DNA of 64,000 nucleotides from Lama guanicoe (Eukaryota): NCBI GenBank assembly GCA_013239625.1, contig MU053645.1, forward strand, positions 1,232,274 through 1,296,273, read 5' to 3'. Numbering within the stretch: position 1 is the first letter of the stretch; every line of letters starts with the position of its first letter. Made by a program: the position numbers and the translations under genes. The notes below the pieces were generated by a model that had not been told where the DNA came from, made no database searches, and saw only the letters and a list, made by a program, of their open reading frames with translations. Positions 8,015 to 64,000 of the stretch are shown here, one piece after another.

Positions 8015-8230
8015 GCCTTGTGAGCCCAGCTTCACATCTTACTAGCTCTATGACCTTGGCTGAGTTACCTATACATTGTGACCTTTCACTTTTACTCATC
8101 TGAAAATGGTGGTAATAGTAATATCTACTTCATAAGGTTGTTGTTTGTATGACATATAATATCTATATAATGCCTCACCTATTATCAGATGCAGAATCAG
8201 GCATCAGTACATGTTAGTGATTGTTATCGG
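8015..8230 (+). repeat. MIR SINE
   Basis: cccagcttcacatcttactagctctatgaccttggctgagttacct...ctcatctgaaaatgg...cttcataaggttgttg. Confidence 0.8.
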
Positions 8231-10990: not shown

Positions 10991-11004
10991 AAGGACATCA
11001 AAAA

Positions 11005-11668
11005 AAGAAAATGAAAATCACAATGAAACAGCACTTCACACTCACTAGGATGTATATAATTAAGGACATAAGTTTTGGTAAGAATGTGGAGAAATTGGAA
11101 TCTTCATACATCACTGGTGGTAATGTAAAATGGCACAGCTGCTTTGGAAAAGAGTTTGGCAGTTCCTTAAAAGGTTAAGTATAGAATCAACAAATGGCCC
11201 AGCAATTTCATTTCTAAATATATACTTCAAAAAATTGAAAATGTCTGTCTATACAAACATTTATACAGGAATGTTTATAACAGCATATTTATAATACCCA
11301 AAAAGTAGAAACAATTTAAATGTCCATCAATTGATGAATGGATAAATAAAAGGTAATATACAATAGAATCTTATTGGACAGTAAAAAGGAATGACATAAT
11401 GATACAATGATTCATACAGATTAATGTTGGAAACATTGTTAAGTAAAAGAAACCAGTCCCAAGAAACCAAATATTGAATGATTCCATTTATATAAAATGT
11501 CCAGATTGGCAAATTTATAGAGACAGAAAGCAGATTAGTGGTTGTCAAGGGATTAGATAATGATAATTGTTGCACATCTCTGAACATACCAAAAACTACT
11601 GAATTATACACTTTAAATCAATGAACTGTATGATGTATAAATTATAGTCAATAAAACTGTTCAAAAAT
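11005..11668 (+). mobile_element. Old L1 (L1MB-like) 3' fragment
   Basis: gaatgtggagaaattggaatcttcatacatcactggtggtaatgtaaaatggcacagctgctttggaaa...caataaaactgtt. Confidence 0.85.
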
Positions 11669-12244
11669 CAGTCATTTGATATCATAATAGAAATTTATTT
11701 GATGGATTTTTTTTCCCTTTTCAACCATATGTTTACCCATCAAAATCACAGTTCTAGATTATATGCTAAATGCATCATTCTTAAAGTTAGTCCTTTTAGA
11801 CATTTCAGGCAGGTTGGGCAATTGCTAGATTCATTCAACCCAAGGTTCCTACAATTTAAACCTCCATCACCAGGCTCCCTTTTTTCGACCCTTGGGGTAT
11901 CAGATACCATAAGATGCCTTGAAATGACACCAGGTCATCATAGTCTTTGCCATATCAGACTTATTATGTTCTCTCATTGACACATGGTGGTACTTGGGGA
12001 GTTCTTTTTCCACAATAGGAATGGAGAGTCTTCAAACTGAGTTACCAAAATCTTTATAGTTGGGGAAACGATCAGGGATAAGTACAAACAAACTCGTATT
12101 TGTGGTCTTTTTTGACATTCTGGTCATCTGATATTAAAACAGAAACACGGATTCATGTTTTAAAAAAAAACAATTTAAGCCAATACTTCCCTCAATAAAA
12201 TTAAAATTGGCTCTCTACTGCCTAAGCCAGTTCTATATACAAGG

Positions 12245-12910
12245 AGTTGTCTCAAGAAGCTAATATCCAAAATATATAAAGAACTAATACAACTCAATAG
12301 CAGAAAGAGCAAACAAGCCAATTAAAATGGCAGAAGATCTAAATAGACATTTTTCTAAAGAAGACATACAGATGGTGAACATGAAAAGATGCTCAGCATT
12401 ATTAATCATCAGAGAAATGCAAATCAAAACCACCTCACACCTATTAGAATGGCTATCATCAAAGAGAAAATAAAAACAAGTGTTGTTGAGGATGTGGAGA
12501 AAAGTGAACTGGTGGTGGGAATGTAAATTGGTGTAGTCACTATGGAAAACCATGTGGAGATTCATCAAAAAATTTAAAGTGGAGCTGCCATATGATCCAG
12601 CAATTCTACTTCTGTGTATTTATCTAAAGAAAATGAAAACATGAATTTAAAAAGATATATGCCCCTTCATGTTTATTGCAACATTATTTACAATAGTCAA
12701 GGTATGGAAACAACCTAAGTGTCTATGGATGGATGAATAGATTAAGGAATTGCAGTGTATGTGTGTATATACACACACACATATATATGTATGTATATAT
12801 AATGGAATATTATTCAGTCATTAAAAGTATGAAATCTTGCCATTTGTGACAATAAAAATAGACCTCAAGGGCATTATGATAAGTGAAATAAGTTAGAGAA
12901 AGAAAAAAAA
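12245..12910 (+). mobile_element. L1 (L1MA-like) ORF2 end and 3' UTR fragment
   Basis: taatatccaaaatatataaagaactaatacaactcaatagc...gccatatgatccagcaattctacttctg. Confidence 0.9.
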
Positions 12911-22669: not shown

Positions 22670-24812
22670 TCTCTTACTCGATGTTCAATAGGCACTTAAA
22701 ACTCAGGCTATCCAAAACAGAACTAAAAACCTTCCCCCCAAAGCCGGCTGTTCCTCTCATGACTGGTATCTCTGTTAATGGTGTTTCCATTCATGTCCAC
22801 TTTTTTTTAATAAGTTTATCATAAAATGAAATTTATTGTTGTTCAACTATCATAATAACTGAGTTTTACAACATTGTCATCACTCCATCTCTTGTGTCCA
22901 TTTGCAGTTAATACTCATACCCAACCTCCAGCCCTTGACAAGAAATAGTCCACTTTTTGTCTCTATGTATTTGTCCTGTCTGAACGTTTATATGGTATAT
23001 CATTTTAGTTTATCATTTTTTTGTGTCTAGCTTTTTTCAGTTAGTATTATGATTTAGAGGTTGATTCATGACAGCATGTATCAGTAGTTCATTTCTTTTT
23101 ATTGCTGAATAGTATTCCATTGTAAGGGTATGCACATCTTGTAATTGATGGAACTTTGGATTATTTCCGATTTTTCACTATTGTGATGTTTTTATGAATG
23201 TGTAGTGTAAGTCTTTGTGCAGAAATGTTTTCATTTCCCTTGGGGGGTGGGTACCTATGGGTAGAATGCTGGGTCTTACTGTAAAGTTTATGTTTAACAA
23301 TTTAAGAAATTGCCAAACTGCTTTTCAAAGAGGATGTGCCATTTTACATTCTCACCAGCAATAAATGAGGGTTACGGTTTCCAACACTCTTGTCAATACT
23401 TGTATTGTTCATCTTGTTTACTAAACCATTCGAGATGACGTGTAGTGGTATCATTACAGTTTTAATGTACATTTTCCTAATGACTATATAATTTTTTAAT
23501 TGAAGTATAGTCAATTACAATGTGCCTGTCTCTGGTATATAGCACAATATCCTAGTCATGCATATATAGAAATATATTTGTTTTCATATTTCTTCCATTA
23601 AAGGTTATTACAAGATATTGAACATAGTTCCCTGTGCTATACAGAAGAAACTTTGTAAAATCTATTTTTATATATAGTGGCTAACATTTGTAAATCTCAA
23701 ACTCCGAAATTTATCCCTTCCCACCCCTTTTCCCTGCTGGTAACCATAAGTTTGTTTTCTGTGTCTGAGAGTATCTCTGTTCTGTAAATAAGTTCCTTTG
23801 TGTCCTACTTTTTTTAGATTCCACATATAAGTGATATCATATGGTATTTTTCTTTCTCTTTCTGCCTTACTTCACTTAGAATGACGATCTCTAGGTCCAT
23901 CCACATTGCTGCAAATGACATTATTTTATTCTTTTTATGGCAGAGTAGTATTCCATTGTATAAATATACCACAAATTCTTTATCCAGTCATCTGTTGATG
24001 GACATTTAGGTTGCTTCCATGTCTTGGCTATTGACTTCCATGTCTATTGTATATACTGCTGCTATGAACATTGGGGTGCATGTGTCTTTTTGACTTAGAG
24101 TTCCCTCTGGATATATGCCCAGGAGTGGGATTGCTGGATCATATCATAAGTCTATTTTTAGTCTTTTGAGGAATCTCCAACTGTTTTCCATAATGGCTGC
24201 ACCAAACTACATTCCCAACAGCGGTGTAGGAGGGTTCCCTTTTCTCCACAGTCCCTCCAGCATTTATCACTTGTGGACTTTTGAATGATGGCCATTCTGA
24301 CTGGAGTGAGGTGATATCTCATTGTAGTTTTGATTTGCATTTCTCTGATAATTAGTGATATTGAGCATTTTTTCATGTGCCTATTGGCCATTTGTATGTC
24401 TTCACTGGAGAATTGCTTGTTTAGGTCTTCTGCCCATTTTTGGATTGGGTTGTTTGTATTTTGGTATTAAGTTGTATGAGCTGTTTATATATTCTGGAAA
24501 TTAAGCCTTTGTCAGTCGCATCATTTGCAAATATTTTCTCCCATTCTGTAGGCTGTCATTTTGTTTTGCTTATAGTTACCTTTGCTGTACATGTCCACTC
24601 TTAAAGGTAGAACTTTCAAAGTCACCCCAAACTCCTCTTCTTCATGGCACATATCCAAATCAATCATTAACATCTCCTGTATCTGTTCCTTCTTCTCTGT
24701 CCCATGACCATTGCCTTACTTCAGAGAATCATGTTTTTCTAAATTGGGCTGTTACCAAAGCCTCAGAAATGGTCTGCCTTCCTCTAAACCATCCTTCATT
24801 TTGCCTACCAAT
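22670..24812 (+). mobile_element. L2 fragment split by the L1 composite (halves ~22670-22800 and ~24600-24812)
   Basis: gatgttcaataggcacttaaaactcaggctatccaaaacagaact...ttccattcatgtccact resumes as cttaaaggtagaactttcaaagtcaccccaaactcctctc...atccaaatcaatc. Confidence 0.7.
22801..24589 (-). mobile_element. Composite L1 insertion: young 5'-truncated L1 (~23493-24589) plus 3'-transduced old L1MB-like segment (22801-~23490)
   Basis: ORF 24158-24391 is an L1 ORF2 peptide; one TSD, catgtccact (22792-22801 / 24590-24599), brackets both parts; poly-T at 22801-22808. Confidence 0.85.
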
Positions 24813-26965: not shown

Positions 26966-28947
26966 TGAAAGACAGTAATTCTACTTTTTAGGGATTTCAA
27001 CTAGATATTAAGGACAGGTCATGTTTTTGCCCACAGTACTAGAAGATCTTTTCTTCTAGCCAATGTGGTTCAGAGACCCCATGTGAAATGACTGTAATAA
27101 GTCTCTGGATCACTTTTAGGTATCATAGAGACATGAGATTTGCTTTATTGCTGCAGTATGTTTTAGTGGCCAAACGACATTAAAATATTCTTTTTCTCTC
27201 TACATAATCCTAGAAATGTTCATGAAAGATTAAATGCTATTCTTCCCCAGCAGTCCCACTAGTGAAATATGTAGTCACAATGCTTAAGAAGGACATTTCC
27301 AAAATTGGACCTCGCAATGTTTCTTACCTCTAGAAGCACATATAGCTTCATAAAGACATGGAAAAGAATTGGAGGGTTTGGGGAAATACCTATGGTTACA
27401 GTATAAGAATGGAATGGAACAAAAGCCTCTGGTTAAATTCTTGGAAGTGTTACAATTTCTATGACATCTTGGGCAACTTTTAAACTCTTTTTGTGCCTTA
27501 GAGTGCAGCCCAAATTAGTGGAATATCTTAAAATGTTGGATCAGAAAGGGTACTGGGGAATGTGAAAGTGTGTGGGTAGGTGTGGGCTGTGGGTAAGTGG
27601 GCGTGTATGCACGTGTGTGTTGAATTATCACTGTACATCACTAGCCTTACGCTGTGTTCCTAAAGGTGTTTAATTAGTAGTCTGTATTTGCATCTAACAG
27701 TCAATTCTCTATCATCTGGGAGTGGAGAGTCTCAAATTTCTCTTTGTAGATGCTTAATAAGACCTATTAAGAAGCTGGGGACATGAAGATGATGTGTGTG
27801 GGCAGCAGTCCAGGATGCGTGCTTGTGTGTATCTACTAAATTGGTGTCTTATACTCCAAAACCAGATAAAATAACATTTCTTATTATGAATACCTCTGTC
27901 CCACTGCGATAGTCCAAATAATTCTTTCTCTCCCTCTCTCTCACACACAGGGGCATTTTAAAAAAATCATATGACATCTTCTAAGGCACAAAAGATGTCA
28001 ATACTGCTTCAGTTTAGCAAACAAAACCCCAAAGACCTAAAATAATTGCCATGCCTCCTTTAAAAATAGCTTAATTTATACCCCACAATACAGTATCATC
28101 TGGTCTCATTCTTAGCCGATATCAGAACTTCAGGCCTTGAAGGGAAGAGAATTTCTTGAGTTTACCAGTAGCATAAATAAGACAAACTCCCAGATCCTAT
28201 TAAGTCATACATACAATCGTATTGCAGATAAGGGAAACATGCTTCATAATTTAAGTGCAGCAATGCCTCTATTTTGATATTATCATAAAGAAATTACTTT
28301 TGTTCACAGTGTTATCTGACCTTCATGCTGAAACTGATTAAAATGTTTTTCCCCCACAACGACGACAACTGTAAATGAAAGTTGAAATGAAATATATGGC
28401 CTAACATCACTGTATAGGAGCTTTCCTGTTTAAAAAACCACCATCATAGAAGAAAGAAACCTAGGAAAGCTCATTTCTTTTTCTACCATCAACACAATTG
28501 CCTTTTACACAAAGGATATTTCATCATTCATGACAGCAAGTTGTCACTTCCAGGGACAGCTTCCATGTAACTTGGTGAGTATTTTACACAGCTTATTCAC
28601 AAGTATTATTTGTATCGAAATGAACTGTGACTTACAGCTAGGACAAATACGGACAGAATCTGATAGGCTACGGTGTATTATGCATGCATGCTGGTGGGGG
28701 CACAGCAGTTTACTGTAGCATTGGTCTCTTTTGTGTTTTTCTAGTTTTTTGTTGGTGATGGGGATTGAGGGGGGATGGAAAGATGTAGATGTTCAAGCCT
28801 CTCCTTTGCGATTTAATGCTAGCCCAAAATTAATATTATTTCTGTTTTCTGAAAAATTGCAAAGTCAAAGGAGTGGAAGCAGATCAAAGACTGTCCCAAT
28901 TTACAAAGCAAAGAAGAAAGAAGGCAAGATGGTTTCTAGGTAGGGCA

Positions 28948-29254
28948 AGACACTAATGAACTTATCTACAAAACAGAAACAGACTCACAGACATAGTAAA
29001 CAAATATGGTTACGAGGGTAGGGTAGGGGGTGGGACGGGATAAACTGGAAGTTCGAGAATTGCAAATACTAAGTACTATATATAAAATAGGTAAACAAGT
29101 TTATATAGTATAGCACAAGGAACTATATTCAGTATCTTGTAGTAACCTGTAATGGAAAAGTATGAAAACAAATGTGTATATGTACATGTAGGACTGAAAC
29201 ATTATGCTGTACACCAGAAATTGACATGTTATAACTGACTATACTTCGATAAAA
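28948..29254 (+). mobile_element. Short 5'-truncated L1 (3' UTR only) with 22-bp TSD
   Basis: L1 3' UTR ending ctgactatacttcgataaaaaa; exact direct repeat aagatggtttctaggtagggca at 28926-28947 and 29255-29276. Confidence 0.95.
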
Positions 29255-29529
29255 AAGATGGTTTCTAGGTAGGGCAGAAAATTTCCGGTAGTCTGTAGAA
29301 TACAGTTATTTTCACTTTGTGTATGTGTGTTTCCTGGTAATAGGGTGCAGAAGAGTCCTATATCATTAGCATTACAAAAAATGTCCTGGTGTGGGACTAT
29401 TTTCCAGAATAAAGGTAAGTGTGTTCCAACACCTGTATGTTAAGGCCACTCAGTGAGACTAGAGGAAGGGGCATGAACAAAGTGAGGGAACAAAATCATC
29501 TCATATGCAGCAATTTAAAGCACAAGATC

Positions 29530-39298: not shown

Positions 39299-41375
39299 GG
39301 GGGCATTAAGATGACTGAGTAGGTGGACGCTGAGCTCACCTTCCCTCATGAACACATCAAAAGTACAACTACATACAGAACAACTCTCACTGAAATCGAC
39401 CTGAAGAGTAGCAGAATCGCTCTTCTACAACCAAGGCTATAAAAAAAGAAACACATGGCATCTGGTAGGAAGAGAGAAGTGATTAAGTCAAGCCTAGCAC
39501 TCCTTGCAGGGGGCCCAGAGAAGAGGGGGACATCACTGGCTCAAGGATCCTCCTTGCGGAGCAAGGGGCTTGAGCCACATATTAGGCACCCCAGACCTGG
39601 GGTCTAATACCAAGAAGATGAAAAATGTCATGGGTATTTTGATGTGGATTGCATTAAATCTGTAGATTGCTTTGGGAAGTATGGACTTTATAACAATATC
39701 AATTCTTCCAATCCATGAATGTGGGATATCTTTCCATTTATTTGTATTGCCTTCAATTTCCTTTATCAATGCCTTATAGTTTAAGAATATAGATCTTTCA
39801 CCTTCTTGGTTAAGTTTATTCCTAGATATTTTATTCTTTTTGTTATGATTGTAAATGGAATTGTTTTGTTGCTTTCTCTGATAGTTCATTAGCGTATAGA
39901 AATAATAATATACTGTTTCTTCAGTAAGTGGTGCTAGGCAAACTGGTTAGCTACATGTAAAACAAACGAAATTAGAACATTTTCTTACACCATATACAAA
40001 AATGAACCCAAATGGATTAAAGACCTATATATAAGAATGGAAACCATAAAATTCCTAGAAGAAAATAAAGGCAGTATACTCTGCGACATAAGTCTTAGCA
40101 ATATTTTTTTGGATCTGTCCCCCCAGGTAAGGGAAACAAAAGCAAAAATAAACAAGTGGGACCTAATTAAAATAAAAAGCTTTCGCATAGCAAAGGTAAC
40201 TGTCAACAAAATGAAAAGACAACCCATTGAATAGGGGAAGGTATCTGTAAATGATATGTCTGATAAGAGGTTAATATCCAAAATATATAGAGCATATACA
40301 ACTCAATATCAGAAAAACAACTCGAATAAAAAATGGATGTTCATGTATGACTGAAGCATTATGCCGTACACCAGAAACTGACACAGCATTGTAAATGGAC
40401 TATACTTCAATAAAAAATATAGAGAGAGAAACTAAAAATAAACAAATAAATAAATAAAAAGAAATGGACAAAAAAACCTAAATAGGCATTTTTCCAAAGA
40501 TGACATACAGATATCCAACAGGCACATGAACAGATACTCAACATCACTAATTATCAAGGAACTACAAGTCAAAACCACAAAGAGAAATCTCACACCTGTC
40601 AGAATGGCTGTCATTTAAAAAGACAACAAATAATAAACGTTGGTGAGGTTGTGGAGAAAAGGGAATTCTAGTACATCATTGGTAGGAAAGTAAATTGCTA
40701 CAGCCACTATGGAAAACAATACAATGGTTCCTCAAAAAATTAAAAATAGAACTGCCATATGATCCAACAATTCCACTCTTGGGTACATGTCTGAAGAAAA
40801 CAAAACCACTAATTTTAAAAGATATATGCACCCCAATGTTCATAACAGCATTATGCACAATAGCCAAGATATGGAAGCAACAAAGTGTCCATCAAGAAAA
40901 TCAATGGATAAAGAAATGTGGTATATATATAGACAGTGGAATATTACTCAGCCATAAAATAGAATAAAATTTTGCGATCTATGACAACATGGATGGACCT
41001 GGAAGGTATTATACTTACTGAAATAACACAGAGAAAAACAAATAATGTATGATATCACTTATATGTAGAACCTAAAAAATAAAAGAAGTGAATATAACAA
41101 AACAGAAACAGACTCACAGATACAGAGAACAAACTATTGGTTACCAGTAGGGAGAACGGTGGTGGGAAGGGAAAGGTAGGAGAAGAAGATTAAGAGATTA
41201 AAAACTGTTAGGTATTAAAAAAAAAAAGTACAAGGAGTAATAGAGAGTACAGGGGATATAGTCAATATTTTATAATGACTTTGAATGGAGTATAATGTAT
41301 AAAAATATCAAATTACTATGTTGTACACCTGAAAGTAATGTAGTATTGTATACCAGCTATACTTCAACAAAAAAT
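39299..41375 (+). mobile_element. Rearranged L1: 5' UTR start, inverted ORF2 piece (39621-39904), then ORF2 end/3' UTR, with a nested short L1 tail (~40338-40460)
   Basis: 5' UTR-like aagatgactgagtaggtggacgctgagctcaccttccctcatgaacacatcaaaagtacaactac; minus-strand [14 protein letters not shown]...KIPMTFF; plus-strand ETIKFLEENKG and LPYDPTIPLLG; 3' end cagctatacttcaacaaaaaa. Confidence 0.85.
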
Positions 41376-42069
41376 TTTTAAAATCTTCCTAGCAGCTCTG
41401 AAGTCCCAGTTTAGGCTGTAGACCATGCACTGGTTGTGGCACTGGTCCTGATGGTGTGATTTTTTTTTTCCTAGAGTTCAGCCATAGATATCAGAGCATC
41501 AAAAGTGATAGATTGATCCAAGAATGAGGAGTGTTCTGGGAAGGCTTAGTGACAAGATGATTCTAGGGTTAGATAAGGCTAGCAAGAAAAGCATACTACA
41601 AGATTTAGGCTGAATAAGAAAAAGTAGTTACACAAGGGGGTTACGAGATTTCTCACTAGGTTCAACTTGGAAATAATTATTCACTTTAGACTTTAAAACA
41701 AAAGTCTCTGGGCTGTTCCCATTATGCCTTTCAGCTACAAAATACAATTATCTTTCTATCAATGGACTGCAAGTACAACCTTCAAATAATAAATGGGCTT
41801 TTTTTAATTAATATGTGCCATGGTACTAATGTCTTAGATTACTTAAAAAAAATCAAAGCATTAAGAGGGTTATGTCCACAGCTCAATCTGAAGTTTTAAT
41901 TCAATTTTTATATCATGTATCTTTGTAATTATAGAAGTAATATATCCTAATTGTAGAAAATTTGAAAGCTACACAAAAGAACTAAAAATGACCTGTTACA
42001 GCAGCATGCAGGAAAAACAAAATAAATTACTTTAGCATACATAGAGAGATATACTTTTGTATCATGTTT

Positions 42070-48800: not shown

Positions 48801-49849
48801 CTGTAACAGGGGATGCTGTGCAGAGGAGGAGGACAAAGGATGGAATAGGCACAGGTAGGCACTCCCGCTGAAGCCTTGGCCCAGGCACAACTGGGAATTT
48901 CACTCACCTGAGGCCCTGGGGTAACTGCCTACTTACTGTGCGGAGAAGCAAGGAGCGCTGAGAAAAACGCGTTCTGAGCCCCAAGAACCAGCGGAAGCTG
49001 AAGTGCCTGTGACCCAGTTGGCAAAGAGCCCAGGAGCACAGTGTGGAATGGATACCACTGTCCCCAACTCCTCAGGGAAAGACCCTATGGGTGTGGGGAG
49101 TTGGGGTGTCAGTGGGGAAATGGCCCCTACTCCTCCACACCTATCCTGGACACTTAACTCCTTCCCTGCCAGGGGCCCTATAAGTGAAGTAGCCTTCCTG
49201 AGCAGTACTTGCTTGCAAGGCTTCAGGGATAGGTCCTTTCCTCCCTCCCTCGGGTCTGACCCCCACCCACCCACCCTGCGCTGTGTGATGTGTTTAATAA
49301 TCTATGATTTGGCTCCAAAGGTGAGGTTGAATGTACCGGTGGGGAGGGATAAATTATCCCTGAGTAGATTCCCCACACAAACCAAAAAGACCACACCTGT
49401 GGTAGGTTCCAGAGTAGCTTTCATCCAGCATCCCAGCCCCGCCACACCTTTCGTGGGTGGCATGGAGGAAACCTTAAATACTTCTTTCCCCATGTCTCCT
49501 GCAAAGTCCCTGGGTCACAGAGATGGAGGGCAGAGTGCAGGAACTAGGAGAAAACCCTGGAACAGAGAATTCTTACAACACACACTTCCTCTGCCAGGTC
49601 TCCTTGTCAAAGCATTTTTTCTTAAATGTCTGATAGTGACAAATCAAGATAGTTGCTCCAAGTGCGGGCCCAGAGTGGCAAGGTAGGTCACACGTGGTGG
49701 CTGCCCCTCCTTCCCCCTCCCTGGAGTTCCCTTGCAAGGAGTCTGAAGTGCAGCTTAGGAGCTGGTCAGTACTCTCTCTCAAGCAGTGGTTCAAGAGAGG
49801 GTCACTCAACTTGAGACACCTGCTCAAGGGGGAGCAGGGATTCCTGTGG

Positions 49850-52300
49850 GAAAGTAGCCAGGACACCCCAGGGTCTCAGGGCAGGCGGGCAGAGATGGCC
49901 TCAGAGCGCCAGAGCTCTCCCTTGTCTCGCGTTCGCTGGGAATCCCCAGGAGCGGGAGTGCATTGCCGGGGAACCCCTCACTTCTCCGCCCAAGAGCCAC
50001 CTTCAGCCCCATCTCCTCGCCAGTTGCTCTCTTGGCTGCGGGCAGAAATGTGGGTAGAGTCAAAAAGAAGCACCCACTAGGAGAGTGCCTTCTAGGCTAC
50101 AAAGCCCGCGCGCCAACCGCGGAGACCACAAAGATCCAGCCGCGGAAACGCAAACGCACGGGCTCCCGGCACCGGGCGGGCAGGCGCGCGCTCCTCTTCC
50201 CCGGCGAGAAGCCCCTGGCCGTGGGAGCTCTGGTCCCTAAACTTTCTGGGAGGACTGAAGGCGTAAAAGGAGACCGGCAAGCGCGTCCTGGCGCGGGGAC
50301 CAGAGATGCAGGAGAGGCAGAGTCCCTGTTGGCCTCAGCCTGCCTGCTCCCTGCTGTCACCGGAGAGCCCAGCAGGCTAACCCCTGGCCCTCGCCAGCCC
50401 ACTGTCCGATTCTGAGAATGGGCATTACCTCTGAGTCTTGCGAAACAGCCGGGGACGTCCAGCAGGGCTCAAGCGTGCAGTTCCATGTCCAGGGCGAGAT
50501 GGAAAGCTGGGTTCCAGAGAGCGCGGGCTCGAGCTTCCCGGTCGACCAGGGAGGCTGCCCCAAGGCAAGGGGGCTGGAGGAGGCGTGGGGAAGACGCTGT
50601 CTTCCAGAGCGGCGGGCAGGGCAGCCCCGCCTGTTTTCTCCACTCCCCCTCCTAGCCCAAGAGGACGCTAGGAAACTTCTCCCGCCCAGGAAAGCTTTCT
50701 AGAGTTCAGCAGAGCCTCTGTGGACTTTTCGAGGGAGCCGGACAGGGAGAGGTTAAAGAGGGTTCCTAAATCACTCGGCTCCTACGCTAAAATGGCAGGT
50801 TCCGCCTCTTGGCTCCGTGGCCAGACTCTCCTAAGTCGCCTGCCTCTCAGCCTCTTCCTTCTTCGAGACTTTGCTTCGGAGCAGCCTTGCTCCAGCTCCA
50901 CCTTTTTTTGGCCAAATGGTGCACCGCGGGACGCAGGCGCCTCAGTCCGTGGCCCTCACGCCCCTCACGAGGCACGCACTTCCCAGAGGGCAACAGTCCT
51001 ATATCCCTGGCGGCAGCGCGGGCGCAGTTGCGAACTCTGCCTGCCCGCTGCTCCAACCTTGCCCGGGAACCTCCAACCAGTGCGCAAAAGCCTATATATT
51101 TGCCCTAGCTCCGAAGAAGGAGCGGTACCCGGGAAGTGAGCTCCGGGCTCGCCTCACATCCTGCCGCCGCCTCCAAAATACGCCTAGAGTGGGGGTAGGA
51201 GGATAGTGGAAATCACTAACATCTCCATCGCTAACAGTTTGGTGCCTCCAGGCTGACTGATTACACCGGGGAGGAGGTGGGGATTAGAGAACTGCTCCGG
51301 CGCGTCACGGAAAAGGGTTACTGCTGCTCCTCCTCCTCTTCCACACCCCTCTGGATTTGGGAGCGCGGAGTGGGAGAGTGGGAAAGGATGCCAAACTTCC
51401 CTCTTCTTTCCTGGGAGAAGGAAAGCGCGTCCCAGCAGCGCCGTCTAGCGTCCGTACCAGAATAGGCCGGCCTACAGGGTTGGAGCGAGCGCTGAACCGA
51501 GTGAGCGAAGGCGGGGAAAGTCACTAAGCGAAGTTTTTCAGCTATCCTGGTCCCCAGTTCCACCCACTGAACAGGTTATCTAGTCCAGCCAGGAGTTCAC
51601 CTGCTTAGTTAACCCTAGGTCAGAACGTAATATTAAAAACAAAGGCCACCTAATTGTATCCATAATATGAGCTTTGTAGTACCAGCGAGAATTCTTTTCC
51701 ACCCCTCCCACATTAGAGATTCTTAAGTCTCAGGGTCTTTCAGCTCCGCCAGGGAGGGCAGGGACCCTTGGATGGGCTCGGAGACAGAACCCGGGCCGTG
51801 ATTGTTTATGCTGCGCGTCTGAGGCTCACCGGCGGTACTCCTGACCAACTGAGTCTCCAAGGTCACGCAGCCCAGGAGCTCCTCTCTTTAAGAGTGATGG
51901 GGAGGGAGGGACTACGACTCAGGAACTGATAGGGTTTGAATTGTAGCAGATTAAGAGACCCGTTTCCACGCCAGGTATCTCCCAGAGCGTTCTGCTTGGC
52001 TCACGGGCGCCTTGCTGTTAACACACTTAACAGGATTGCTCATTTAACGGGTCAGCTGAGCGCTATGCTTCAGCATTTGCTGCTGCGCTGGGCTCCTGTT
52101 AATTTGTCTTTCTCTAAGCTTTCTCCAGCTGTTCTTCTGAGGCTGCTCCACCGCTCTGCATTAGCTACAAAGAACGAGCGAGCAAGCCAAAGACGGAGAT
52201 GCAGACAAGGACCGAGAGAAAACAACTGAGCGCTCCGAGCCTTCCGTTCGCTTCCTTGGCCGCATGGCCTCCATACACCATCCCCTGGACTTCTAAGACC
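49850..52300. promoter_or_regulatory. CpG island, probable promoter of an unidentified gene
   Basis: Abrupt switch to GC-rich, CpG-dense, repeat-free sequence (gcgcgc, ccgcgg, GC boxes such as ggcggg); no recognisable coding exon. Confidence 0.85.
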
Positions 52301-53604
52301 AAGCCTGTACAGAATTAAAGTTACTATCCCTCTCTTGCCTCTCATGAAAAGTTTATGTATTTTTCCCCCGTTGACCACCTCTCGCACGTATCAAATCCCA
52401 TGAAATCCTACCCTGGAAAACTTCTGCAATTGAGGCTAAGTCGGGGAATTGAGAGAGCCCAGGTGTGGAAGGAAAGGTCCTTTGGGCAGGAACCAAGTTC
52501 TCCCAGGTTTTTGTTGTTTATATGCACGCGATGGTGGGGGGGGGTGCTGTAGTTTTGAAACGGAAAATGTCCTGTAGTTTCTGCTTCTGTTTTCTAACTG
52601 CTCCTCTATTCTGATAAAAGCCTATTCTTCCGATGGGAACTAAGCCAGTTCTCCCTTGCTCTTTGCTACATAGCTCATGTAAGCGTCCCTCTGCCTGCGT
52701 GCTTGCCCTGAGCAGTCCTCATCACCACTTCCAGCTGTCCAGCCCCACCGATATTAGTGTTACTCCTGCTCAATACTAAGTGCTTCCAACAAGCCAGGAA
52801 TTGCAACAATACAGGGTGGAAGAACACCACCCCCTCACATTTCACTTTCCTGGTTGGGAGCCTGGTACCTAGTCTTACCTTGAGCATAGCCACGCCCTCA
52901 TGCCCCAGACCTGAGCTGAGCAGCTAAGCTGTCAGGTGAAACCATTTGGCCAAAGTGGGAGGCCTCTCACTTACATTACGGTGTTAAAGAGCCAGCATTC
53001 AGGAAGAGAGGAGCTCATTGGGAATAGCAGCCAGTAATATCCCTAAGCAAATTGTCAAGTAGAAAACACATTTTTAAAAAAATAACAAAACAAAAAACCA
53101 AAATACCCTCTTCCTGTCCTGTTGATTCCTTTTATCATCTTTCTATGTCCAGTTCCACCCAATTTCACTCTAACGCCCAGTGCCTTTATGTATCCAAGTT
53201 CTGTACTGCCTGCCCCATCAAAACTTACTCTCCTGTGTACCTACCATTCTTTCAGTACTCCTTCTGCTGATGACAACAGTTGGTGTTCCAGTCTGATAAA
53301 GGCTTAACTAATCTAGCTAACCTTACTCCCCTGGGTAACATCCACCTGTCACCAGAGGTTTAAGAAGTCTTTCCAGAATTGAGGATGTAAGGCACTATGG
53401 CAGATCAGTGGATTTTCTTTGGTACCCATCAAAGAGGGCTGCTCTTTGGCCTATCCTACTGGTCTGGTTTATGGTTAAATGAAGCAATTGCAAAAGAGTT
53501 GAGGAATATATGAATAAAGAGACCAAGGAGGAACAAAATGCCAAGAAAATGGGGACAGTACCACTGATCTCTCAAAAACAATTTAGTGAGACTTTATGGT
53601 CTAG

Positions 53605-55179: not shown

Positions 55180-55588
55180 CCATTTTCACCCTTTACCTTG
55201 TGACTTTGAGTGCCTCCCACTAGAGTTAAAGGAGCCTATTTCCCTCACTCCACTGTGATTGGCCACATGACTTGCTTTGACCGAAGGAATATTAACAGAC
55301 TTGATGCTAATGGTTTGGCTCCTCATGCTTCTGCTACCCACCAGTAGTCCTGGTACCTCCTGGTCCAAAGAGAATGATAAGATGCATGGACTAAACCTGA
55401 AACCAGCTCAGAGTGTGGGGTCAAACCCAGGTAGCCCAAATGAGATCAGGTGAACCCAAACTGACTTACAAACCAAGCTGACTTACAAACTTGTGAATAG
55501 GAAACAAATGTTTATCATTGTATGGCATTGACACATGGGTGTTTTTTAATCATAATATATTATTACAACAGTAACTGACTAATGCAAT
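55180..55588 (+). mobile_element. Old MLT1-type LTR
   Basis: ttccctcactccactgtgattggccacatgacttgctttgacc...cctggtccaaagagaatga...acaacagtaactgactaatgca. Confidence 0.65.
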
Positions 55589-55699
55589 TCCCTTTTGCTT
55601 AGAAATATTTATCATGTATATGTTATTTTCCACCTAACAAGTATTTTTTAAATCACAAAGAAATTAATTACCTATCATTAGGACATGGATTGAATAAAC

Positions 55700-56080
55700 T
55701 ACAGAACATATGTATACACTTTCCACTTAGGATTTATATTAACCTTAAATTCAGCGATAAATAGAAATGTTTGCTTTCCTGCATTTTTATACCATTAATG
55801 TCACAAACCCAAGAATGCATTGTTATCATTATTACTCTATATGATTTTATGTCTTTTAAAGAAGCAGGAAAGCAAATATATATTTATATTGTTCATACTG
55901 TTAGCCTTATTTGCTATTTCTGGTTCTCTTCATTTTTTCCTGTGGATATGAGTTACCATTGGCTGCTGCCATTATTTCCTTATTCTGATATAACATTGCT
56001 TCCACCAACCCCATTTGTGCTGTTATTGTCAAATATTACATTTCTATATGTTATAAGCCCAGCACAAACATGCAATTGCT
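55700..56080 (-). mobile_element. Old L1M fragment (left half; resumes at ~62931)
   Basis: catttttcctgtggatatgagttaccattggctg...gctgttattgtcaaatattacatttctatatgttataagccc. Confidence 0.6.
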
Positions 56081-56115
56081 TTTTTTTATTTTCCAGCATT
56101 GCATTTATTGGATAG

Positions 56116-56402
56116 TCTCGGCAGCCTTAAGTGAGTATGCCATGGGGCCCAGGCCAAAGTTCACAATAGTTTGCACCTGGTAAGAGGTAAATGTACGCAT
56201 GCGCTAGTAGCATGAGTAAGCATTATGAACACTACGCACGTGCCACTAGCATTATAAAAAGGACAAGTGCATACATCTGAGCGCGGTGTACGCCACTTGT
56301 ACTGCAATAAAGTGCTGTTTTGCTCCATGTCAGCTTCTCGTGCCTTCTTCCATTTGGGCAGCTCACCTCCTCGAATCCCTCTTCATCCTCCCTCAGCTGA
56401 CG
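56116..56402 (+). repeat. 5' LTR (287 bp)
   Basis: Direct repeat of 62304-62594; ends TC...CG (decayed TG...CA); TATAAAAA 56253-56260; AATAAA 56306-56311. Confidence 0.97.
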
Positions 56403-56404
56403 CT

Positions 56405-56422
56405 TGGTGTAGCCGGCAGGAT
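56405..56422 (+). other. Primer-binding site, tRNA-Ser
   Basis: TGGTGTAGCCGGCAGGAT, 2 nt after the LTR; 16/18 match to TGGCGTAGTCGGCAGGAT, the complement of the tRNA-Ser(AGA) 3' end. Confidence 0.9.
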
Positions 56423-56431
56423 GAGGTGAGT
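56421..56431 (+). promoter_or_regulatory. Major splice donor with preceding ATG (ATGAG|GTGAGT)
   Basis: Consensus GAG|GTGAGT with GT at 56426-56427; ATG at 56421 has A at -3. Confidence 0.75.
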
Positions 56432-56470
56432 GCTCCTTCTGTTCCCCCTTCCTCTGACGGGGAAGCTTGG

Positions 56471-57795
56471 ATGGAAACAATGTGGCCCCCTACCTCTTTA
56501 TGGCACCCAGTAGCAGCCTATTTGCTGGCGTGGGCTCCACCTGAGGATTGGGACACAGTGGCACCCAGGCCAGATGACATCCTAAAGGCTCTGGAGTTGT
56601 TGGAAAACAACGTCCCACTGCCCCACTGAGAGGCAGCTGGGAGGGTAGCCTGGATGTTTTTATCGATTTTATGTCATGCTAGCCAAGACAATAGAGAATT
56701 ATAGATGCAAGTGGAGCAGTTACAGTGCAAGGAAGAAGAATGCGAGCAGAGACTCGGAAGGCAGAAAGATGCGTGCTTGGCTCCAGTTCCACCGCCTCTT
56801 CGCGAGTGGTAAGCCCGGCCCTTCCCGTTCCACTGTGTCTATGACCTGTGGTGCAGCAGTGGGTGGAACTGGAGGAATCAGTGGCCCAGAGGGGAGCTTC
56901 TGCGGGACCACAGTGAGCGACTCAACAAGCCATCTACATGTCTTATACGTCGATGGAATTGCGGGTCTTGGCAAAGCAGTGTAAGCAGCGTATGGGTGAG
57001 TCAGCCCCTGCATGGCTATTATGCCTTTGGGATGATGGGGCTGACCAGACTGAGCTATCTCTGAAGGAGATGGGCCAGCTGGCCAGTATAAAAACCGTAC
57101 CTTTGTTGCGGGAACGGCTGCAAAACATTCCCCAGTCTAATGCTAATGCTGGCAGCCATACATTGATAAACTGGTTAATGGCTGCTGCACGCACTATGTG
57201 CGACAGTGCCGGAGATTTCCCCGAACATGTGAGTAAATGGACCACGAATTTGGAATTAGCACAAGGTGTCTGAGAAATGGGCATGCGCCAAATGATGTTT
57301 GCTTTGCAATTCCACAGTTCAGATGATGAACTCCTTACAGCTCAGATGAAGGGTCTGATTTTGGCTAACGGCCCAGCAAGAACGTTTGGGACCATGGTGG
57401 CACTACTAGCACTGTATGTAGGCCACCCCATACATGAGGTAACTGACGCTCTGGCTTGTCTAGGGTATGTAGAGGTGCGCCGAAAGGGGATACGTGCCGC
57501 CAAGACTCAAGGTGAGTCCACGACCTCCTCCCGGCAGCGACTCAGAAAGGAAAGCTCACGCAAGGGAGAAGAAAGAGGAATGCCCTGATTTCGGGAGGGC
57601 CCCAGAAAGTAAATCGCTGACAGATATGGTGCGACTTACTGGCAGCCGGCTTGGACCGTATAAAATTAGACAGCCAACCATTGGAGGTCCTGATGGCTCT
57701 ATGGAAGAAATTACTGCCTGAGCAACAACATACTCTGTTGCTGACCTCCCAACAGGCCCGAGAAGGTGGCCCTTGCTGATTTCCTCCCGGACTAG
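56471..57795 (+). pseudogene. gag: gag, disrupted
   Basis: MWPPTSLWHPVAAYLLAWAPPEDW; SYTSMELRVLAKQCKQRMGESAPAWLLCLWDDGAD; QIWCDLLAAG; stops at 56627, 56702 and 57271 plus frameshifts; ends GAC TAG (57793-57795). Confidence 0.9.
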
Positions 57796-60700
57796 GGGGA
57801 AGGCCGAGGTGTCCGGGACGTGGGGAACCCAGGTGACCAGAGGCCGCATATTGAACTATCCACTGGACCCCTACAAATAAACAGTGGGTATTGGCATTAG
57901 TAGATACAGGAGCCGAAATTACATTATTGTATGGAAATCTGGATTGCTTTTGGGGACCACAGGTTGATATAGAGGGATACGGAAGCAAGCAAATGCAAGT
58001 TAAATGAGTGACTCTGACTTTGGGTGTTGGCTGCTTGCCCCCTGCTGCATATGAAGTACATATATCCCCAGTAGCTGAGTATATCCTGGGAATAGACATT
58101 TTGCAAGGATTGGAAATACAGATGACTCAAGGGGAATTTCACCTGAGACTTCACATGGTGAAAACCGTTATATGGGGGCACCCCCATCATGCACCTCTTG
58201 ATTCTGCCACAGGCCACTCAAGTGGTGAACATCAGGCAATTTCGGTTGCCCAGAGGCCACGATGAGATAGGACAGACTAGCCTGAAACTTGAGGACGCCA
58301 GTATAATTCAGGCAATGCATAGCCCATATAACTCTCTAGTGTGGCCAGTGCAGAAGCCAGACGGCTCCCAGAGGATGACAGTGGACTACTGACAGCTGAA
58401 CAAAGTCACCCCCCCATGCACACGGCTGTGCCAAATATAACAGACTTGATGTCCCGGTTGTCCCATGAACTGGGTACTTGTCACTATGTGGCCAATGCAG
58501 TCTTCTCAATAGACAGCCCCTGAGAGCCAGGAACTATTTACATTTACCTGGGAAGGTAGACAATGGACGTTGGCTATGTTGCCACAGCGATATCTGCACA
58601 GCCCCACACTGTGCCATGGCCTGGTGGCCCAGGACCTGGCTACATGGAGCAAACCAGATACCGTTCGTTTGTTTCATTATATAGATAACTTAATGCTACC
58701 CTCTGATTCTCTTTCAGATTTGGAAACCAGTGCCACAGCGCTGTGAGAAGCCCTGGAGAGCTGGGGGTGGGCCGTGAACAAGGACAAAGTGCAAGGACTT
58801 GGATATTTTGTCAAATTCTTGGGTGTTGTCTGGTCGGGTAAGACAAAAGTGCTGCCTGAAGTGGTAATAGACAAGATCCAGGCATATTCCCGCCCTGAAA
58901 CAGTTAAACAGTTACAGACTTACTTAGGTCTTCGGGGATACTGGCGGGTGTTTATTCCTCATTTGGCCCAAATAGCTAAACCCCTGTATAAATTGATTAA
59001 GAAGGGAGAAGTCTGGGATTGGACAGATGAGGCCAAACGTGCATTTGTAGAAAGTAAGAGGGCGGTGGCCCAAGCGCAAGCACTGTGCACTGTAGATCCA
59101 GACCTCCCTTTCTGGTTAACAGTCCATATGGATGATGATAGATATTGTTCAGGCTTACGGCAAAAACATGGGCAATGGAAGGTGCCCATAGGGTTCTGGT
59201 CTCAGTTGTGGAAAGGGGCTGAATATCGGTAATTTTTAATTGAGAAACAACTGTTAGCAACATACGCATCCTTGATAGCAACTGAACCCCTGATGGGGAG
59301 GCAAGAGGCCCACATACCCCACTGCAGGGTGGATACATATGTGGGCAAAGCAACCATGATCAGTAACTGCACAGACCCCAACTCTGACGAAGTGGGGTGC
59401 TTATTTGGAACAGAGGGCCCAATACACTGCTAGCCTCTTGGCTGCAGAGTTGCAGCAGGTGTTAGGGCCTGTGAGATTTGTTGCGCCTGTCATACAGACG
59501 CTCCCACATCAAGGGGTGGACCCCGCACCTAGTCCCTTTCGCAAAGCGGAAGGGACACCCTTGGGAACTGCTTGGTATACAGATGGATCTTGTAAGGGCA
59601 GTCCGCCCACTTGGGTTGCAGTAGAACTGCACCCTGCCACTAAAGCCTTCTGATATGAGACAGGAGAAGGCCAATCCAACCAATGGGCTGAGTTACGGGC
59701 AGTATGGCTGGTGTTGATGAATGAACCCAGCCCATTGCAGATTTGCAAGGATAGTTGGGCTGTATATCAAGGCCTCACATTGTGGACACCCCAATGGGCC
59801 CTGCAAGACTGGACGATTGGGCAACGACCCCTATGGGGACAGTGTATGTGGAAACAGTTGTGGGATAAAGGCCAAGAAGGTCACTATGCTATTTACCATG
59901 TACCAGGGCACCGCCCAGCCTTGGCACTGGGCAATGATGCTGCTGATGCACTAGCCCAACTTCGTCCTGCACGGGCCATGTTTCCAGGACCCAATGTAGG
60001 CCCCTGGCTCCATAAGGAACTTGACCATGTAGGCTCGTACACAATGAGGCATGTAGCTGACTGGTGGGGCCTGCACTTGAGTCAAATTGAAGCCAAGAAT
60101 GCTGTGCGGCAATACCCATAGTGTGCTAAGCACCATCTGCACTGGTGGCGATGGCCCCAACAGACGGGGAAGATTGTACGGGGGATCCAGCCATTGCAGA
60201 TATGGCAAATAGATTGCATAGGCCCATTTGCCCCTAGTACAGGCTTGCGGTACCTGCTGACAGCTGTAGACACGGCTACTGGCCTAGGTTTTGCTTACCA
60301 TGTGTCCCGAGCTACGCAGGACTCTACCATCACAGCATTGGAATTTTTATGAGACTTTTACTAGACTCCCTTAGAAATACAAAGTGATAGAAGGACCCCT
60401 TTTACTGCCCGACAGACCCAGGAATGGGCCAAGGAGAATGATTATTAAATGGACATTGCATGTGCCTTACCGCCTCCAAGCAGCAGGAATGATTGAGTGA
60501 TACAATGGCCTACTAAAAGATAAATTGAGGGCTCTCAAACCACAGGGATGAGGCTGGAACATTGCTCTGCCACAGGCGGTACGTCTTTTAAATGAGCAAC
60601 GTTGCTGTACAGGTATGAGCCCACTAGAGGAGTTATTGCAAGGGACCATTCAGAGACTCAGAGTTGGGCCCATGAAGGATGCCTCCGACATATCAGTAGT

Positions 60701-61143
60701 AGGGCATGCGTTAATATTACACGCCCCCAGGGTTTTGAACTTGGGACAACACGATATATGGGCATGGAAGGACCAGATCCAAACTGAAGGCCCCTGGCTA
60801 GCCCTTTTAGAACCATGGGGTGACGGGCTAAAGAAAGCCCTGCAGGTAACCCCACAAGCAGGGGAATGGCCTTTTGGTGTATGGGTCACCCTAGGAGAAA
60901 TGCGGGTGTCCCTACTTAAGGAGCAGAAGCCCTGCGACTCTGGGCAATTCCACTGATAGCCTCTGAAGCACTTCCAGAGTGTAACCAACCAAGTGTGGGC
61001 GGATTGGTGTGGTACCACTGCCCAGGGCGAACAGCCCTTCCTGGTGCTGTACTTTTGCAGGACGAAAGAGGCGCCTGCATTCTCCTGGGAGAGACTTGCC
61101 AATTATGGTGTCCACCTTTGCTTTATCCTTCTGCCCAGGGTAA
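57796..61143 (+). pseudogene. pol: pro-pol (PR, RT, RNase H, IN), disrupted
   Basis: PR LVDTGA (57897-57914); [38 protein letters not shown] for YIDD (58678-58689), VKFLG; RNase H WYTDGS/AELRAV/GNDAAD; IN WQID, QSD, GMIE; stops at 58005, 58390, 58744, 59230, 59651, 60119, 60362, 60498 plus several frameshifts. Confidence 0.95.
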
Positions 61144-62294
61144 CGACGAATACCGTATTCTCATGGGCACACACATTTGCACGAGTCCACAATGTCTCTC
61201 ATTGCTGGGTCTGTACTGAACTTCCCATAGACACAGGAGATGGACTACCATGGCACCTCCACCCCACATCCAAAACTAATTGGAGCACATTGACTCAATG
61301 GAACGCCAACAGGACAACAGGATCGCCCTGGGACTTGAGGCGTCGGACTATCGAAGATATGCTCCGTTGTGAGCAGGGCAATGCCCCTCCCCTAAGTGGA
61401 AGGACAGTACGGAATGGGTGGGGGTGGATGAATAGTGTCCATGTAAAATTAACAAGTCTAAGTCCCTTCTGTATCGAGCAGTGGTTTGAACGCGAGGCCC
61501 CAAACCGCACAGTGGGGTGGCTCCCCAAAGGGCTGTGTGCCAACATCACTCGCAATGTAAATGCCTCCACTTGGTGGGATGGACGGCGTTTGATTGGCAC
61601 AAAACCCACCGATTTCCTGCCGCCAGGGTATCTGTGGGTATGTGGCACCCACGGATGGTCATATCTCCCAGCTAAATGGACAGGGTGCTGTACTTGGGGT
61701 AAAGCTTACTTGCCGGGGCACATCCGGCCCACTTTAACAGAGTGCCCTGCTAACTGGGATCTGCTGCACACCCGGTGGCACCATAGAAAACATGCAGGTT
61801 GGTGGTTTTATCCCATGGCCCTGTTCCTGCCTGGGGCCGGGACCATCAGTGTAGAGTTGCAGCTAGAAGCTTTAGCTCAGCACGTATCAGCTGCATTGAA
61901 TGTTACAAGGAAAGCCATACAGGAATTATTAGATGAGACCACCCAAATGCGAAAGGTGGTTTTACAAAACAGGATAGCGTTAGACATTCCCACTACAAGC
62001 CCAGACGGCACAAGTGCTATGTTACATATTGAATGCTGTATCTATATACCAGATCACCAGAAGGGAGTCGCTGAGGCATTGCAAGAAATAGATCAAGAGC
62101 TAAATCACATAGACCATGTAACTCAAGACCCTGTTAAGGAATGGTGGTCATCCTTAAGCTCCTCCTGGAGATGGGGCCTAACTGTCCTGGCCATTGTAGC
62201 TGCCTGTTTAGTGTTAGGATGTTGTTCTCTGTATTGTTGTTGTGGTCTTTCGGCACAGTGTTGTGCTTTATGGTCCAGTGTCCCCACGACCTAG
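60993..62294 (+). CDS. env: Retroviral envelope glycoprotein (SU+TM), uninterrupted frame; true start probably supplied by splicing
   Basis: CWVC (61203-61214); seven N-X-S/T sequons; GYLWVCG...LPAKWTG; fusion peptide WWFYPMALFLPGAG; heptad repeat; ISD LQNRIALD; CC; TM helix WGLTVLAIVAACLVLG; Cys-rich tail; stop overlaps the PPT. Confidence 0.93.
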   Translation: MWADWCGTTAQGEQPFLVLYFCRTKEAPAFSWERLANYGVHLCFILLPRVTTNTVFSWAHTFARVHNVSHCWVCTELPIDTGDGLPWHLHPTSKTNWSTLTQWNANRTTGSPWDLRRRTIEDMLRCEQGNAPPLSGRTVRNGWGWMNSVHVKLTSLSPFCIEQWFEREAPNRTVGWLPKGLCANITRNVNASTWWDGRRLIGTKPTDFLPPGYLWVCGTHGWSYLPAKWTGCCTWGKAYLPGHIRPTLTECPANWDLLHTRWHHRKHAGWWFYPMALFLPGAGTISVELQLEALAQHVSAALNVTRKAIQELLDETTQMRKVVLQNRIALDIPTTSPDGTSAMLHIECCIYIPDHQKGVAEALQEIDQELNHIDHVTQDPVKEWWSSLSSSWRWGLTVLAIVAACLVLGCCSLYCCCGLSAQCCALWSSVPTT

Positions 62295-62303
62295 GGGGTG
62301 GAG
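62293..62303 (+). other. Polypurine tract
   Basis: AGGGGGTGGAG immediately before the TG of the 3' LTR. Confidence 0.85.
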
Positions 62304-62594
62304 TGTCGGCAGCCTTAAGTGAGTAGGCCGTGGGGCCCAGGCCGAAGTTCACAATAGTTCGCACCTGGTAATAGGTAAATGTATGCATGCGCCAGTAGCG
62401 TGAGTCGTCATTATGAACAATACACATGCGCCACTAGCATTATAAAAAGAACAAGTGTGTACACCTGAGTGTGGCACATACCACCCACTTGTACTGCAAT
62501 AAAGTGCTGTTTTGCTCCATGTCGGCTTCTCGTGCCTTCTTCCAGTTGGGCAGCTCACCTCCTCGATTCCCTCTTCAGCCTCCCTCAGCTGACA
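62304..62594 (+). repeat. 3' LTR (291 bp)
   Basis: TGTCGGCAG...CAGCTGACA; TATAAAAA at 62441; AATAAA 62498-62503. Confidence 0.97.
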
Positions 62595-62746
62595 GATTGA
62601 TAGACATTTCTGGAAAGGGTTAGTTAATTACACTGACCTCCCATTGCCTTTTCCAAAGGGAGTTGAATTTATTGGCCTAAGCATTTTATCTATCAAATGA
62701 CTAGCATTTTTTTCAAGTTTTGAATTTTTTCCCACATCATAGTGTT

Positions 62747-62930
62747 ATTTATTTATTTTTGTATATATATTTTTATTGAAGTGTAGTCAGTTTATAATGT
62801 GTCAATTTCTGGTGTACAGCATATGTTCATTTTCATATTTTTCACCATAAGTTACTACAAGATACTGAATACAGTTCCCTGTTATACAATATGAACTTGT
62901 TTATCTATTTTATATATGTTAGTATCTGTG
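62747..62930 (-). mobile_element. Short 5'-truncated L1 3' end with degenerate A-tail
   Basis: tttttattgaagtgtagtcagtttataatgtgtcaatttctggtgtacagc...gttactacaagatactgaatacagttccctg is the antisense of the L1 3' UTR also seen at 28948-29254. Confidence 0.85.
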
Positions 62931-64000
62931 AATTACTTTTTCAATCTGAAGAGAATAAAGGAAAAGAAATATTCCCTTATATTGTCTTTTATAATTGTAT
63001 AATTGCCTTTACTGGTGGTGGGGTTTTTTTTTTCATGTGGATTGAAATTACTTTGGGGGGATCACTGGCTTTCATACATAAGAACCTCATTTAGTATTTC
63101 TTATAAGATCGGTTTTTTGCAACAAATTCTATCATTTCATCTGAGAATGTTTGTATTTTGCCTTAATTTTTGAAATCTTTTGCTAGATGTGGATTCTTAA
63201 TTCATAGTGGGTTTTTTGTTTTTTTGGTTTTTTTTTGCTTTCAGCACTTTGAGTATGTCATTCCACTGCTTTCTGGCCTCCATTGTTTCCAAGAGAAATA
63301 ATCATTTTCTCTTGTTGGGGTTCCTTTGTATGTGATGAGTCACTTTTTTCTTCCTGCTTTTAAGATTTTTCTCTTTGTCTTTCCCTTTCAGCACCTTTAC
63401 TACGATGTGTCTGCATGTGGATCTCTCGATGTTTATCCTTGTTATAGTTCACTGGCCTTCTTGGTATGTAGATTCATGTTCATTCAAATGAGGGAGGTTT
63501 TCAGCCATTATTTCTGCAAATTTTTTTCCTACTCCTTTCTCTCCTCTCCTTTAGGTACCTCCATTACGTATAATTTAGTGTGTTTTTAATGGCATCCAAC
63601 ATTTCACCAAGGCCCTATTCATTTTTTTCATTATTTTTTCTCTCTTCTTCAGACTACATAATATCTATCGATCTTCAAGTTCATTGATTTTTTTTTTATT
63701 CCGCCAGTTGAAATCTACTACTGGGCTCCTGTAACACATATTCATTTTCAGTATTGTACTTCACAACTCCAGAATTTGCATTTGATTCTTTTTAAAAAAT
63801 AATTTCTACCTCTTGTTATTCTCTATTTTGATTGCATTTTCATCATAAATTATTTTACTTCTTTAAACACAGTTCACTTCAGTTATTTAAACATTTATAG
63901 TGAAGTCTTTGTCCATTAAACCTGACATTTTGGCCCCCTTACAGGCAGTTTCTGTTGCCTGGTTGTTTTGTTTCATTTTTCCTTTTCTTTATTGTAAATG
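62931..64000 (-). mobile_element. Old L1M fragment (right half)
   Basis: ttcagcactttgagtatgtcattccactgctttctggcctccattgtttc...ttcagactacataatatctatcgatct; antisense old L1 sequence. Confidence 0.8.

Follow-up and report, generated by a model that had tools for sequence, protein, structure and literature searches.

A 64,000-bp stretch of the Lama guanicoe genome (GCA_013239625.1, contig MU053645.1, positions 1,232,274 to 1,296,273; hereafter the window) was analysed in this study, which revealed near its right end an endogenous retrovirus (ERV) lying inside a short insert headed by a 3' end from long interspersed nuclear element 1 (L1). The locus is most likely a case of ordinary mobile-element nesting in three layers, namely an old L1, a short L1 transduction and an ERV-S-like provirus. 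In the reading that we favour, with a probability of about 0.72, an L1 3' transduction of ~360 bp was later hit by an ERV-S-like retrovirus. Nested insertions, 3' transductions and the L1-mediated relocation of env are all already known.

Read on the minus strand, the insert begins with a 161-bp L1 3' end, taken directly from the sequence, which is followed by an A-rich tail, 147 bp of non-L1 DNA, the provirus in antisense orientation, a further 18 bp of unique sequence beyond the far long terminal repeat (LTR) and its 5-bp target copy, and a second tail (Table 1). An AATAAA on the minus strand stands within the 18-bp piece, 11 nt before the second tail. A first-pass annotation of the window had described these components in the same order, and every one of them was recovered where it had been placed; the anatomy also supports its view that a retrotransposed insert, polyadenylated and headed by L1, encloses the provirus. 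With the provirus subtracted, the insert measures 362 bp, of which ~170 bp would be the transduced part. The L1 fragment, which we take to resemble camelid L1, aligns to a further L1 3' end at window positions 29000-29330 with 142 matches, 14 mismatches and an internal gap of ~28 bp, and thousands of public contigs match its part at 62770-62810; relative to the bulk of the L1 contigs it has a small gap at 62794-62800. The non-L1 segment has no second copy within the window (best other match E 0.3). An Rfam scan of 55500-64000, ARAGORN on the whole window and a blastn search of 62600-63900 against plasmids and phages each returned no match, and a 20-letter pattern from the segment occurred once in metagenome contigs, where the surrounding sequence was unrelated, and not at all in viral contigs.

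The repeat that had been proposed to bracket the insert, aattgcttttt on the left and aattacttttt on the right, holds up as an outer duplication, with 10 of 11 letters identical and the best-scoring pair in a scan of the junctions. Its target reads TG/AAAAA on the minus strand, which is an endonuclease-type site. An equally good match arises by chance at 85 of 55,890 window positions and at 17 of 1,020 positions within the T-rich host L1 (0.15-1.7%). For the L1 fragment alone, the junction scan gave no separate duplication of at least 7 letters with at most one mismatch. The host is itself an old L1, presumably of the L1M subfamily, with an ORF1 remnant on the minus strand to the right of the insert (PF02994, E 1e-5). 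This element had been described as reading continuously across the insert; continuity is weakly indicated by an internal repeat unit, whose alignment to the left remnant runs as far as unit position 55849 while that to the right remnant begins at 55841, with scores that were also reached by 20 of 300 and 5 of 300 shuffles.

Contigs from four of 22 listed public whole-genome runs (X6, X4, X12 and X13; organisms A, B, E and F) were aligned to 62555-62810 at 80% likeness, and 80-98% of the left-flank words are present in 20 of the 22 runs, across six organism codes. A 305-bp contig of X13 (record 10; depth 8.2 versus 9.8) fits 62601-62730 with 11 differing letters and two small insertions, and two of the 11 letters are common to the orthologous contigs of X13 and X12. 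At 62647 and 62672 both X13 copies and X12 carry the other letter, which suggests that the window's lineage holds the derived state. A contig starts at 62601 in all four aligned runs, and in X6 and X4 one 31-mer (62600-62630), taken at double the depth of a single contig, is enough to give the bin depths exactly; because summed depth gives no copy number, the X13 contig is the main evidence for a second copy, with depth as backing. The non-L1 segment is duplicated in the genome, and its copies are ~7% diverged and not local, which leaves little to be said for an origin as ancestral DNA of this locus. A second copy of this piece had been predicted by the first-pass annotation and has been found in the X13 contig, but that contig does not run on into L1: its remaining 169 letters fit neither the tail nor the L1 (62731-62810).

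At the locus itself, the junction between LTR and flank is bridged exactly in X6 and X4 (62555-62630), and the junction between segment and tail is bridged with at least 31 letters on each side in X12 and X13. Position 62600 is uncovered in X12 and X13 (organisms E and F), which do contain the segment and the tail. For the second copy, a left-going contig is present in none of the four runs and a right-going one in one of them, and its LTR-side flank is not among the aligned contigs. Filtering or graph simplification is probably behind the gap in X12 and X13 and could also account for the missing contigs of the second copy; none of these gaps is taken as evidence. The departure of the second copy at 62599, inside the 5-bp duplication, was considered as support for an empty source and then dropped, because both copies of the duplication have the same letter there and one substitution is needed under either order of events.

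The provirus (56116-62594, 6,479 bp) lies on the plus strand, antisense to the L1 insert, between the 5-bp target copies gatag and gattg, which differ by one mismatch. Its two LTRs are complete and align end to end; together with the 5-bp duplication, this is how an integrase leaves them. The LTRs differ in 30 of 287 columns (Kimura two-parameter distance 0.114). The first 180 bp hold 25 of the 30 differences, and the terminal dinucleotides of the 5' LTR both differ from the TG...CA of the 3' LTR. The primer-binding site is presumably of the tRNA-Ser type. Stops (14) and frame changes (3) interrupt pro-pol over 998 codons (57891-60887), and the provirus is dead. In a pol tree of 13 rows, the provirus falls in a class III-type clade of nine (support 98/99), which includes dUTPase-bearing ERV-L-type pol, with two Tyto rows and the gypsy rows outside. 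A tblastn search with the P0012 dUTPase gave no match at E 0.01, and pol runs into env. The env gene is class I (PF00429), and three of its five matches are named PABLB-like env.

As far as the accessible parts of the sources cited here go, HERV-S combines a class III pol with a class I env related to PABL/PRIMA41 (PMC4724089), and a 5-bp target duplication is typical of ERV-L-type elements (PMC8278194). The provirus shares with HERV-S a class III-type pol that lacks dUTPase, a class I PABL-like env and the 5-bp duplication, and this combination suggests an ERV-S-like element. The assignment is partly supported, as it was made by feature combination with no labelled HERV-S or ERV-S reference among the matches. 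Different from HERV-S, this is a camelid-lineage copy with short LTRs (~290 bp), whose reverse transcriptase (RT) has a Talpa protein as its nearest relative (62%). The possibility that the provirus is an L1-processed pseudogene of the HERV-W type was rejected. In both, an L1-type duplication and a poly(A) tail enclose ERV sequence; however, HERV-W pseudogenes are copies of sense viral RNA with R-U5 and U3-R LTRs and a tail directly after R (PMC5016936), whereas the provirus described here has full LTRs, is antisense to the tail and has host DNA on both sides, with the tail outside these host flanks.

Two A-tails, an AATAAA 11 nt before the last of them and an 11-bp duplication make up the anatomy of a partnered 3' transduction as published (PMC4859970; PMC12350158), and they count in favour of a transduction that the virus later hit. 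An L1 3' end with its A-tail, non-L1 DNA with an AATAAA 10-30 nt before its end and a second tail, an outer duplication of 4-20 bp at a TT/AAAA-like site and a second copy of the non-L1 DNA, which are among the features by which L1 3' transductions are recognised, were all found. In the proposed course of events, an L1 transcript would have missed the poly(A) signal of its element and continued for ~170 nt, to the AATAAA of 56104-56109; L1 reverse transcriptase would then have copied this transcript into an endonuclease-type site in the old L1, and copying would have stopped after ~360 bp, when 161 bp of L1 had been added to the tail sequence and the source A-tail. An ERV-S-like virus would subsequently have integrated by means of its own integrase into the 170-bp tail, in the opposite orientation and with a 5-bp duplication, after which the provirus would have decayed.

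The sizes fit such events. Modal lengths of the unique part are 37-818 bp for seven of the eight most active human source L1s, and germline partnered transductions have a median total of 1,520 bp (PMC13009371), so that a 362-bp insert with ~170 bp transduced is within the usual range. Like the published cases (PMC4859970; PMC12350158; PMC13009371), the insert has an L1 3' end, two A-tracts, a downstream poly(A) signal, an endonuclease-site duplication and a second copy of the tail; unlike them, its tail is split by a provirus of 6.5 kb, and next to the second copy no source L1 was seen. Source L1s need not co-segregate with their transductions and are at times absent (bioRxiv 2024.04.18.590093), and the lack of an L1 beside the second copy is thus to be expected at times. 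The driver would have been a source L1 that does not now lie next to the second copy, either because it was never fixed or because the second copy is a sibling. On assumed numbers, integration of a provirus into some transduced tail should be far commoner than a transduction of more than 6.5 kb whose limits fall 150 bp ahead of a provirus and 23 bp beyond it.

Several points weigh against a transduction followed by viral integration. The second tail is short, with 13 letters of which five are part of the outer duplication, and transcripts at times pass a canonical poly(A) signal (PMC13009371). The second copy shows no source L1 at its side and leaves 16 bp of the non-L1 segment (62731-62746) unmatched, and an empty source junction is not among the observed contigs. 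If an L1 transcript carried the whole provirus, its LTRs should likewise be complete and its 5-bp duplication present. Outside CpG the LTRs differ at 17 of 254 positions (6.7%, confidence interval 3.9-10.5), and the segment differs from its second copy at 9 of 130 (6.9%, 3.2-12.7; Fisher p=1 for the two compared). On these divergences both insertions belong to one era, and since the two values are equal the molecular clock does not order the events; their order would rest on anatomy and priors.

Among the alternatives, the one that retains most weight, although it is unlikely, agrees that the provirus came later and takes the small insert as a 5'-truncated retrocopy of the end of a cellular poly(A) RNA. 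The L1 end would then derive, in variants that we weigh jointly, from template switching or from a second, independent L1 insertion into the 5' duplication. The contig of the second copy departs from the window sequence at 62730 and has no L1 piece, the A5-rich run at the start of the first tail bears a loose resemblance to the outer duplication, and chimeric retrocopies formed by RNA switching are known (PMC4859970; PMC2912911), all of which agree with such a retrocopy. However, the 16 unmatched letters could be due to alignment clipping near the A-run. An independent L1 should have a duplication of its own at its tail end, which the junction scan did not return, and its 5' junction would have to coincide by chance with the end of the earlier duplication. 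Transductions, moreover, are frequent, with 466 among 5,311 polymorphic L1 insertions in humans (PMC12350158).

The first-pass annotation had left two orders of events side by side, namely later integration into a transduced segment and transport of the entire 6.5-kb provirus by an L1 read-through transcript. Anatomy and priors make the former much more likely, and we consider the latter quite improbable. In that scenario, an L1 ~150 bp from an existing provirus gave a transcript that crossed all of it in antisense and was polyadenylated 23 bp past the far LTR, and the resulting cDNA of 6.85 kb was inserted at this site. Everything does lie between a single pair of 11-bp duplications, the ages are compatible, and only two extra poly(A) hexamers (58951 and 59235) occur on the minus strand of the provirus, yet these two would still have to be passed. 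Of 213 HERV-W elements, 135 are processed pseudogenes, so the L1 machinery does copy multi-kb ERV RNAs (PMC5016936), and antelopes have a retroduplicated env mRNA (PMC9604959). This ARTenvV of Hippotraginae offers an artiodactyl precedent for L1 moving env, with a 14-bp duplication, but a spliced env mRNA was copied there, whereas here a full, unspliced provirus is nested and its env is degenerate (PMC9604959). Against transport of the provirus, the cDNA would need to be 6,846 bp long and to end 161 bp into L1, which is far above the published medians (PMC13009371), the poly(A) site must happen to fall just beyond the LTR, and no L1 adjoins the second copy. No report of an L1 transduction with a two-LTR provirus was found among the listed titles and opening parts of abstracts (25 of 148 hits in the largest listing), a body of text that includes little subscription literature.

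The absence of any single retrotransposition, with the non-L1 pieces being local ancestral DNA, the L1 fragment and the provirus separate insertions and the two 11-mers a chance match, is the least credible account of all: five of the 11 letters are a T-run common to the tail, the chance rate reaches 1.7% in the T-rich host L1 and the continuity of that host is weakly shown, but the segment occurs a second time in the genome, the junction scan gave no duplication belonging to the L1 fragment alone, and poly(A) signal, tail and duplication stand in the expected order and spacing.

Under later integration the locus has little consequence beyond a relative date that the nest gives for a camelid ERV family. 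If the provirus had instead been carried by the L1 transcript, L1 would duplicate whole proviruses with both LTRs and the original 5-bp duplication kept; such a copy would mimic an independent infection and be counted as a fresh integration by LTR and target-site criteria, and LTR-based dating of this locus would be wrong.

Table 1. Features of the nested insert, its host L1 and the provirus, in window coordinates
Feature	Position	Strand	Remark
Host old L1, left remnant (approximate left bound)	55740..56073	-	weak alignment
Outer target-site duplication, left copy	56074..56084	.	overlaps second A-tail by 5 letters
Second (terminal) A-tail of insert, short, interrupted	56080..56092	-	sequence read
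3' end of non-L1 segment, with AATAAA at 56104-56109	56093..56110	-	sequence read
Proviral 5-bp target duplication, left copy	56111..56115	.
5' LTR, 288 bp	56116..56403	+	LTR alignment
Primer-binding site	56406..56423	+	position
Leader and broken gag region (approximate bounds)	56424..57890	+	P0005 pieces at 56761-57522
Broken pro-pol, class III type, without dUTPase	57891..61084	+	14 stops, 3 frame changes
Probable signal-peptide exon of env (leader), in a second frame within RT, with GT donor at its end	58785..58837	+	no ATG in frame here
env surface-transmembrane (SU-TM) exon, after in-phase AG acceptor	61139..62294	+	open 384 codons; motifs degenerate
3' LTR, 291 bp, after polypurine tract	62304..62594	+	flank junction bridged by contigs in X4, X6
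Proviral 5-bp target duplication, right copy	62595..62599	.	1 mismatch
Non-L1 (transduced) segment, 147 bp	62600..62746	-	second genomic copy fits 62601-62730; another AATAAA at 62668
First A-rich tail (L1 tail)	62747..62775	-
5'-truncated L1 3' end, 161 bp	62770..62930	-
Outer target-site duplication, right copy	62931..62941	.	target TG/AAAAA on minus strand
Host old L1, ORF1 remnant	62942..64000	-	PF02994

The SU-TM frame of env has no breaks in its 384 codons, compared with 17 in the 998 codons of pro-pol (chance ~0.1-4%). Its furin site, immunosuppressive domain and CX6CC motif are degenerate, and the leader frame has no ATG start, nor does the long frame ahead of its codon 134. Vicugna pacos (75%) and Camelus dromedarius (74%) supply the closest env relatives, and identity to camelid paralogues is 77-84% (169 of 219 and 74 of 88 columns); no near-identical annotated env orthologue is among the matches. 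Given the degenerate motifs, the level of paralogue identity and the lack of such an orthologue among the matches, these sequence comparisons do not support a syncytin-like co-option of env.

A hydrophobic, leader-like stretch before SU is a polypyrimidine tract that ends in an AG acceptor (61137-61138). The N-termini of env gene models match instead another frame inside RT, at 58785-58837, which closes at an in-phase GT donor. Among the 37 env proteins tested, six have this leader directly before the start of SU, namely in alpaca, horseshoe bat, sloth, horse, donkey and squirrel, and for each of the six matches none of 200 shuffles reached the score. The six leader-bearing proteins are among the closest relatives, while the leader is missing from one close Logan protein (P0023) and from every distant class I env. 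The predicted gene models suggest that the signal peptide of this env clade may come from an exon that overprints RT and is joined to SU by splicing across 2.3 kb. Narrow literature searches found no description of an RT-overprinted env leader exon, and this by-product may outweigh the main finding in value.

A CpG-rich island at ~49800-52499 lies in an otherwise AT-rich, L1-dense window. The first-pass annotation had placed an env gene within 4 kb of it, which was overstated: a distance of 3.6 kb separates the island from the 5' LTR, but one of 8.6 kb from the env exon, which is moreover degenerate. Two of the 70 listed open reading frames were scanned for a gene at the island, and neither gave a Pfam match. 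Elsewhere in the window, many fragments of L1 3' regions occur at 6600-12900, 23000-24600, 28900-29300 and 40000-41400, and their pairwise likeness of 67-89% suggests that they may come from several L1 subfamilies.

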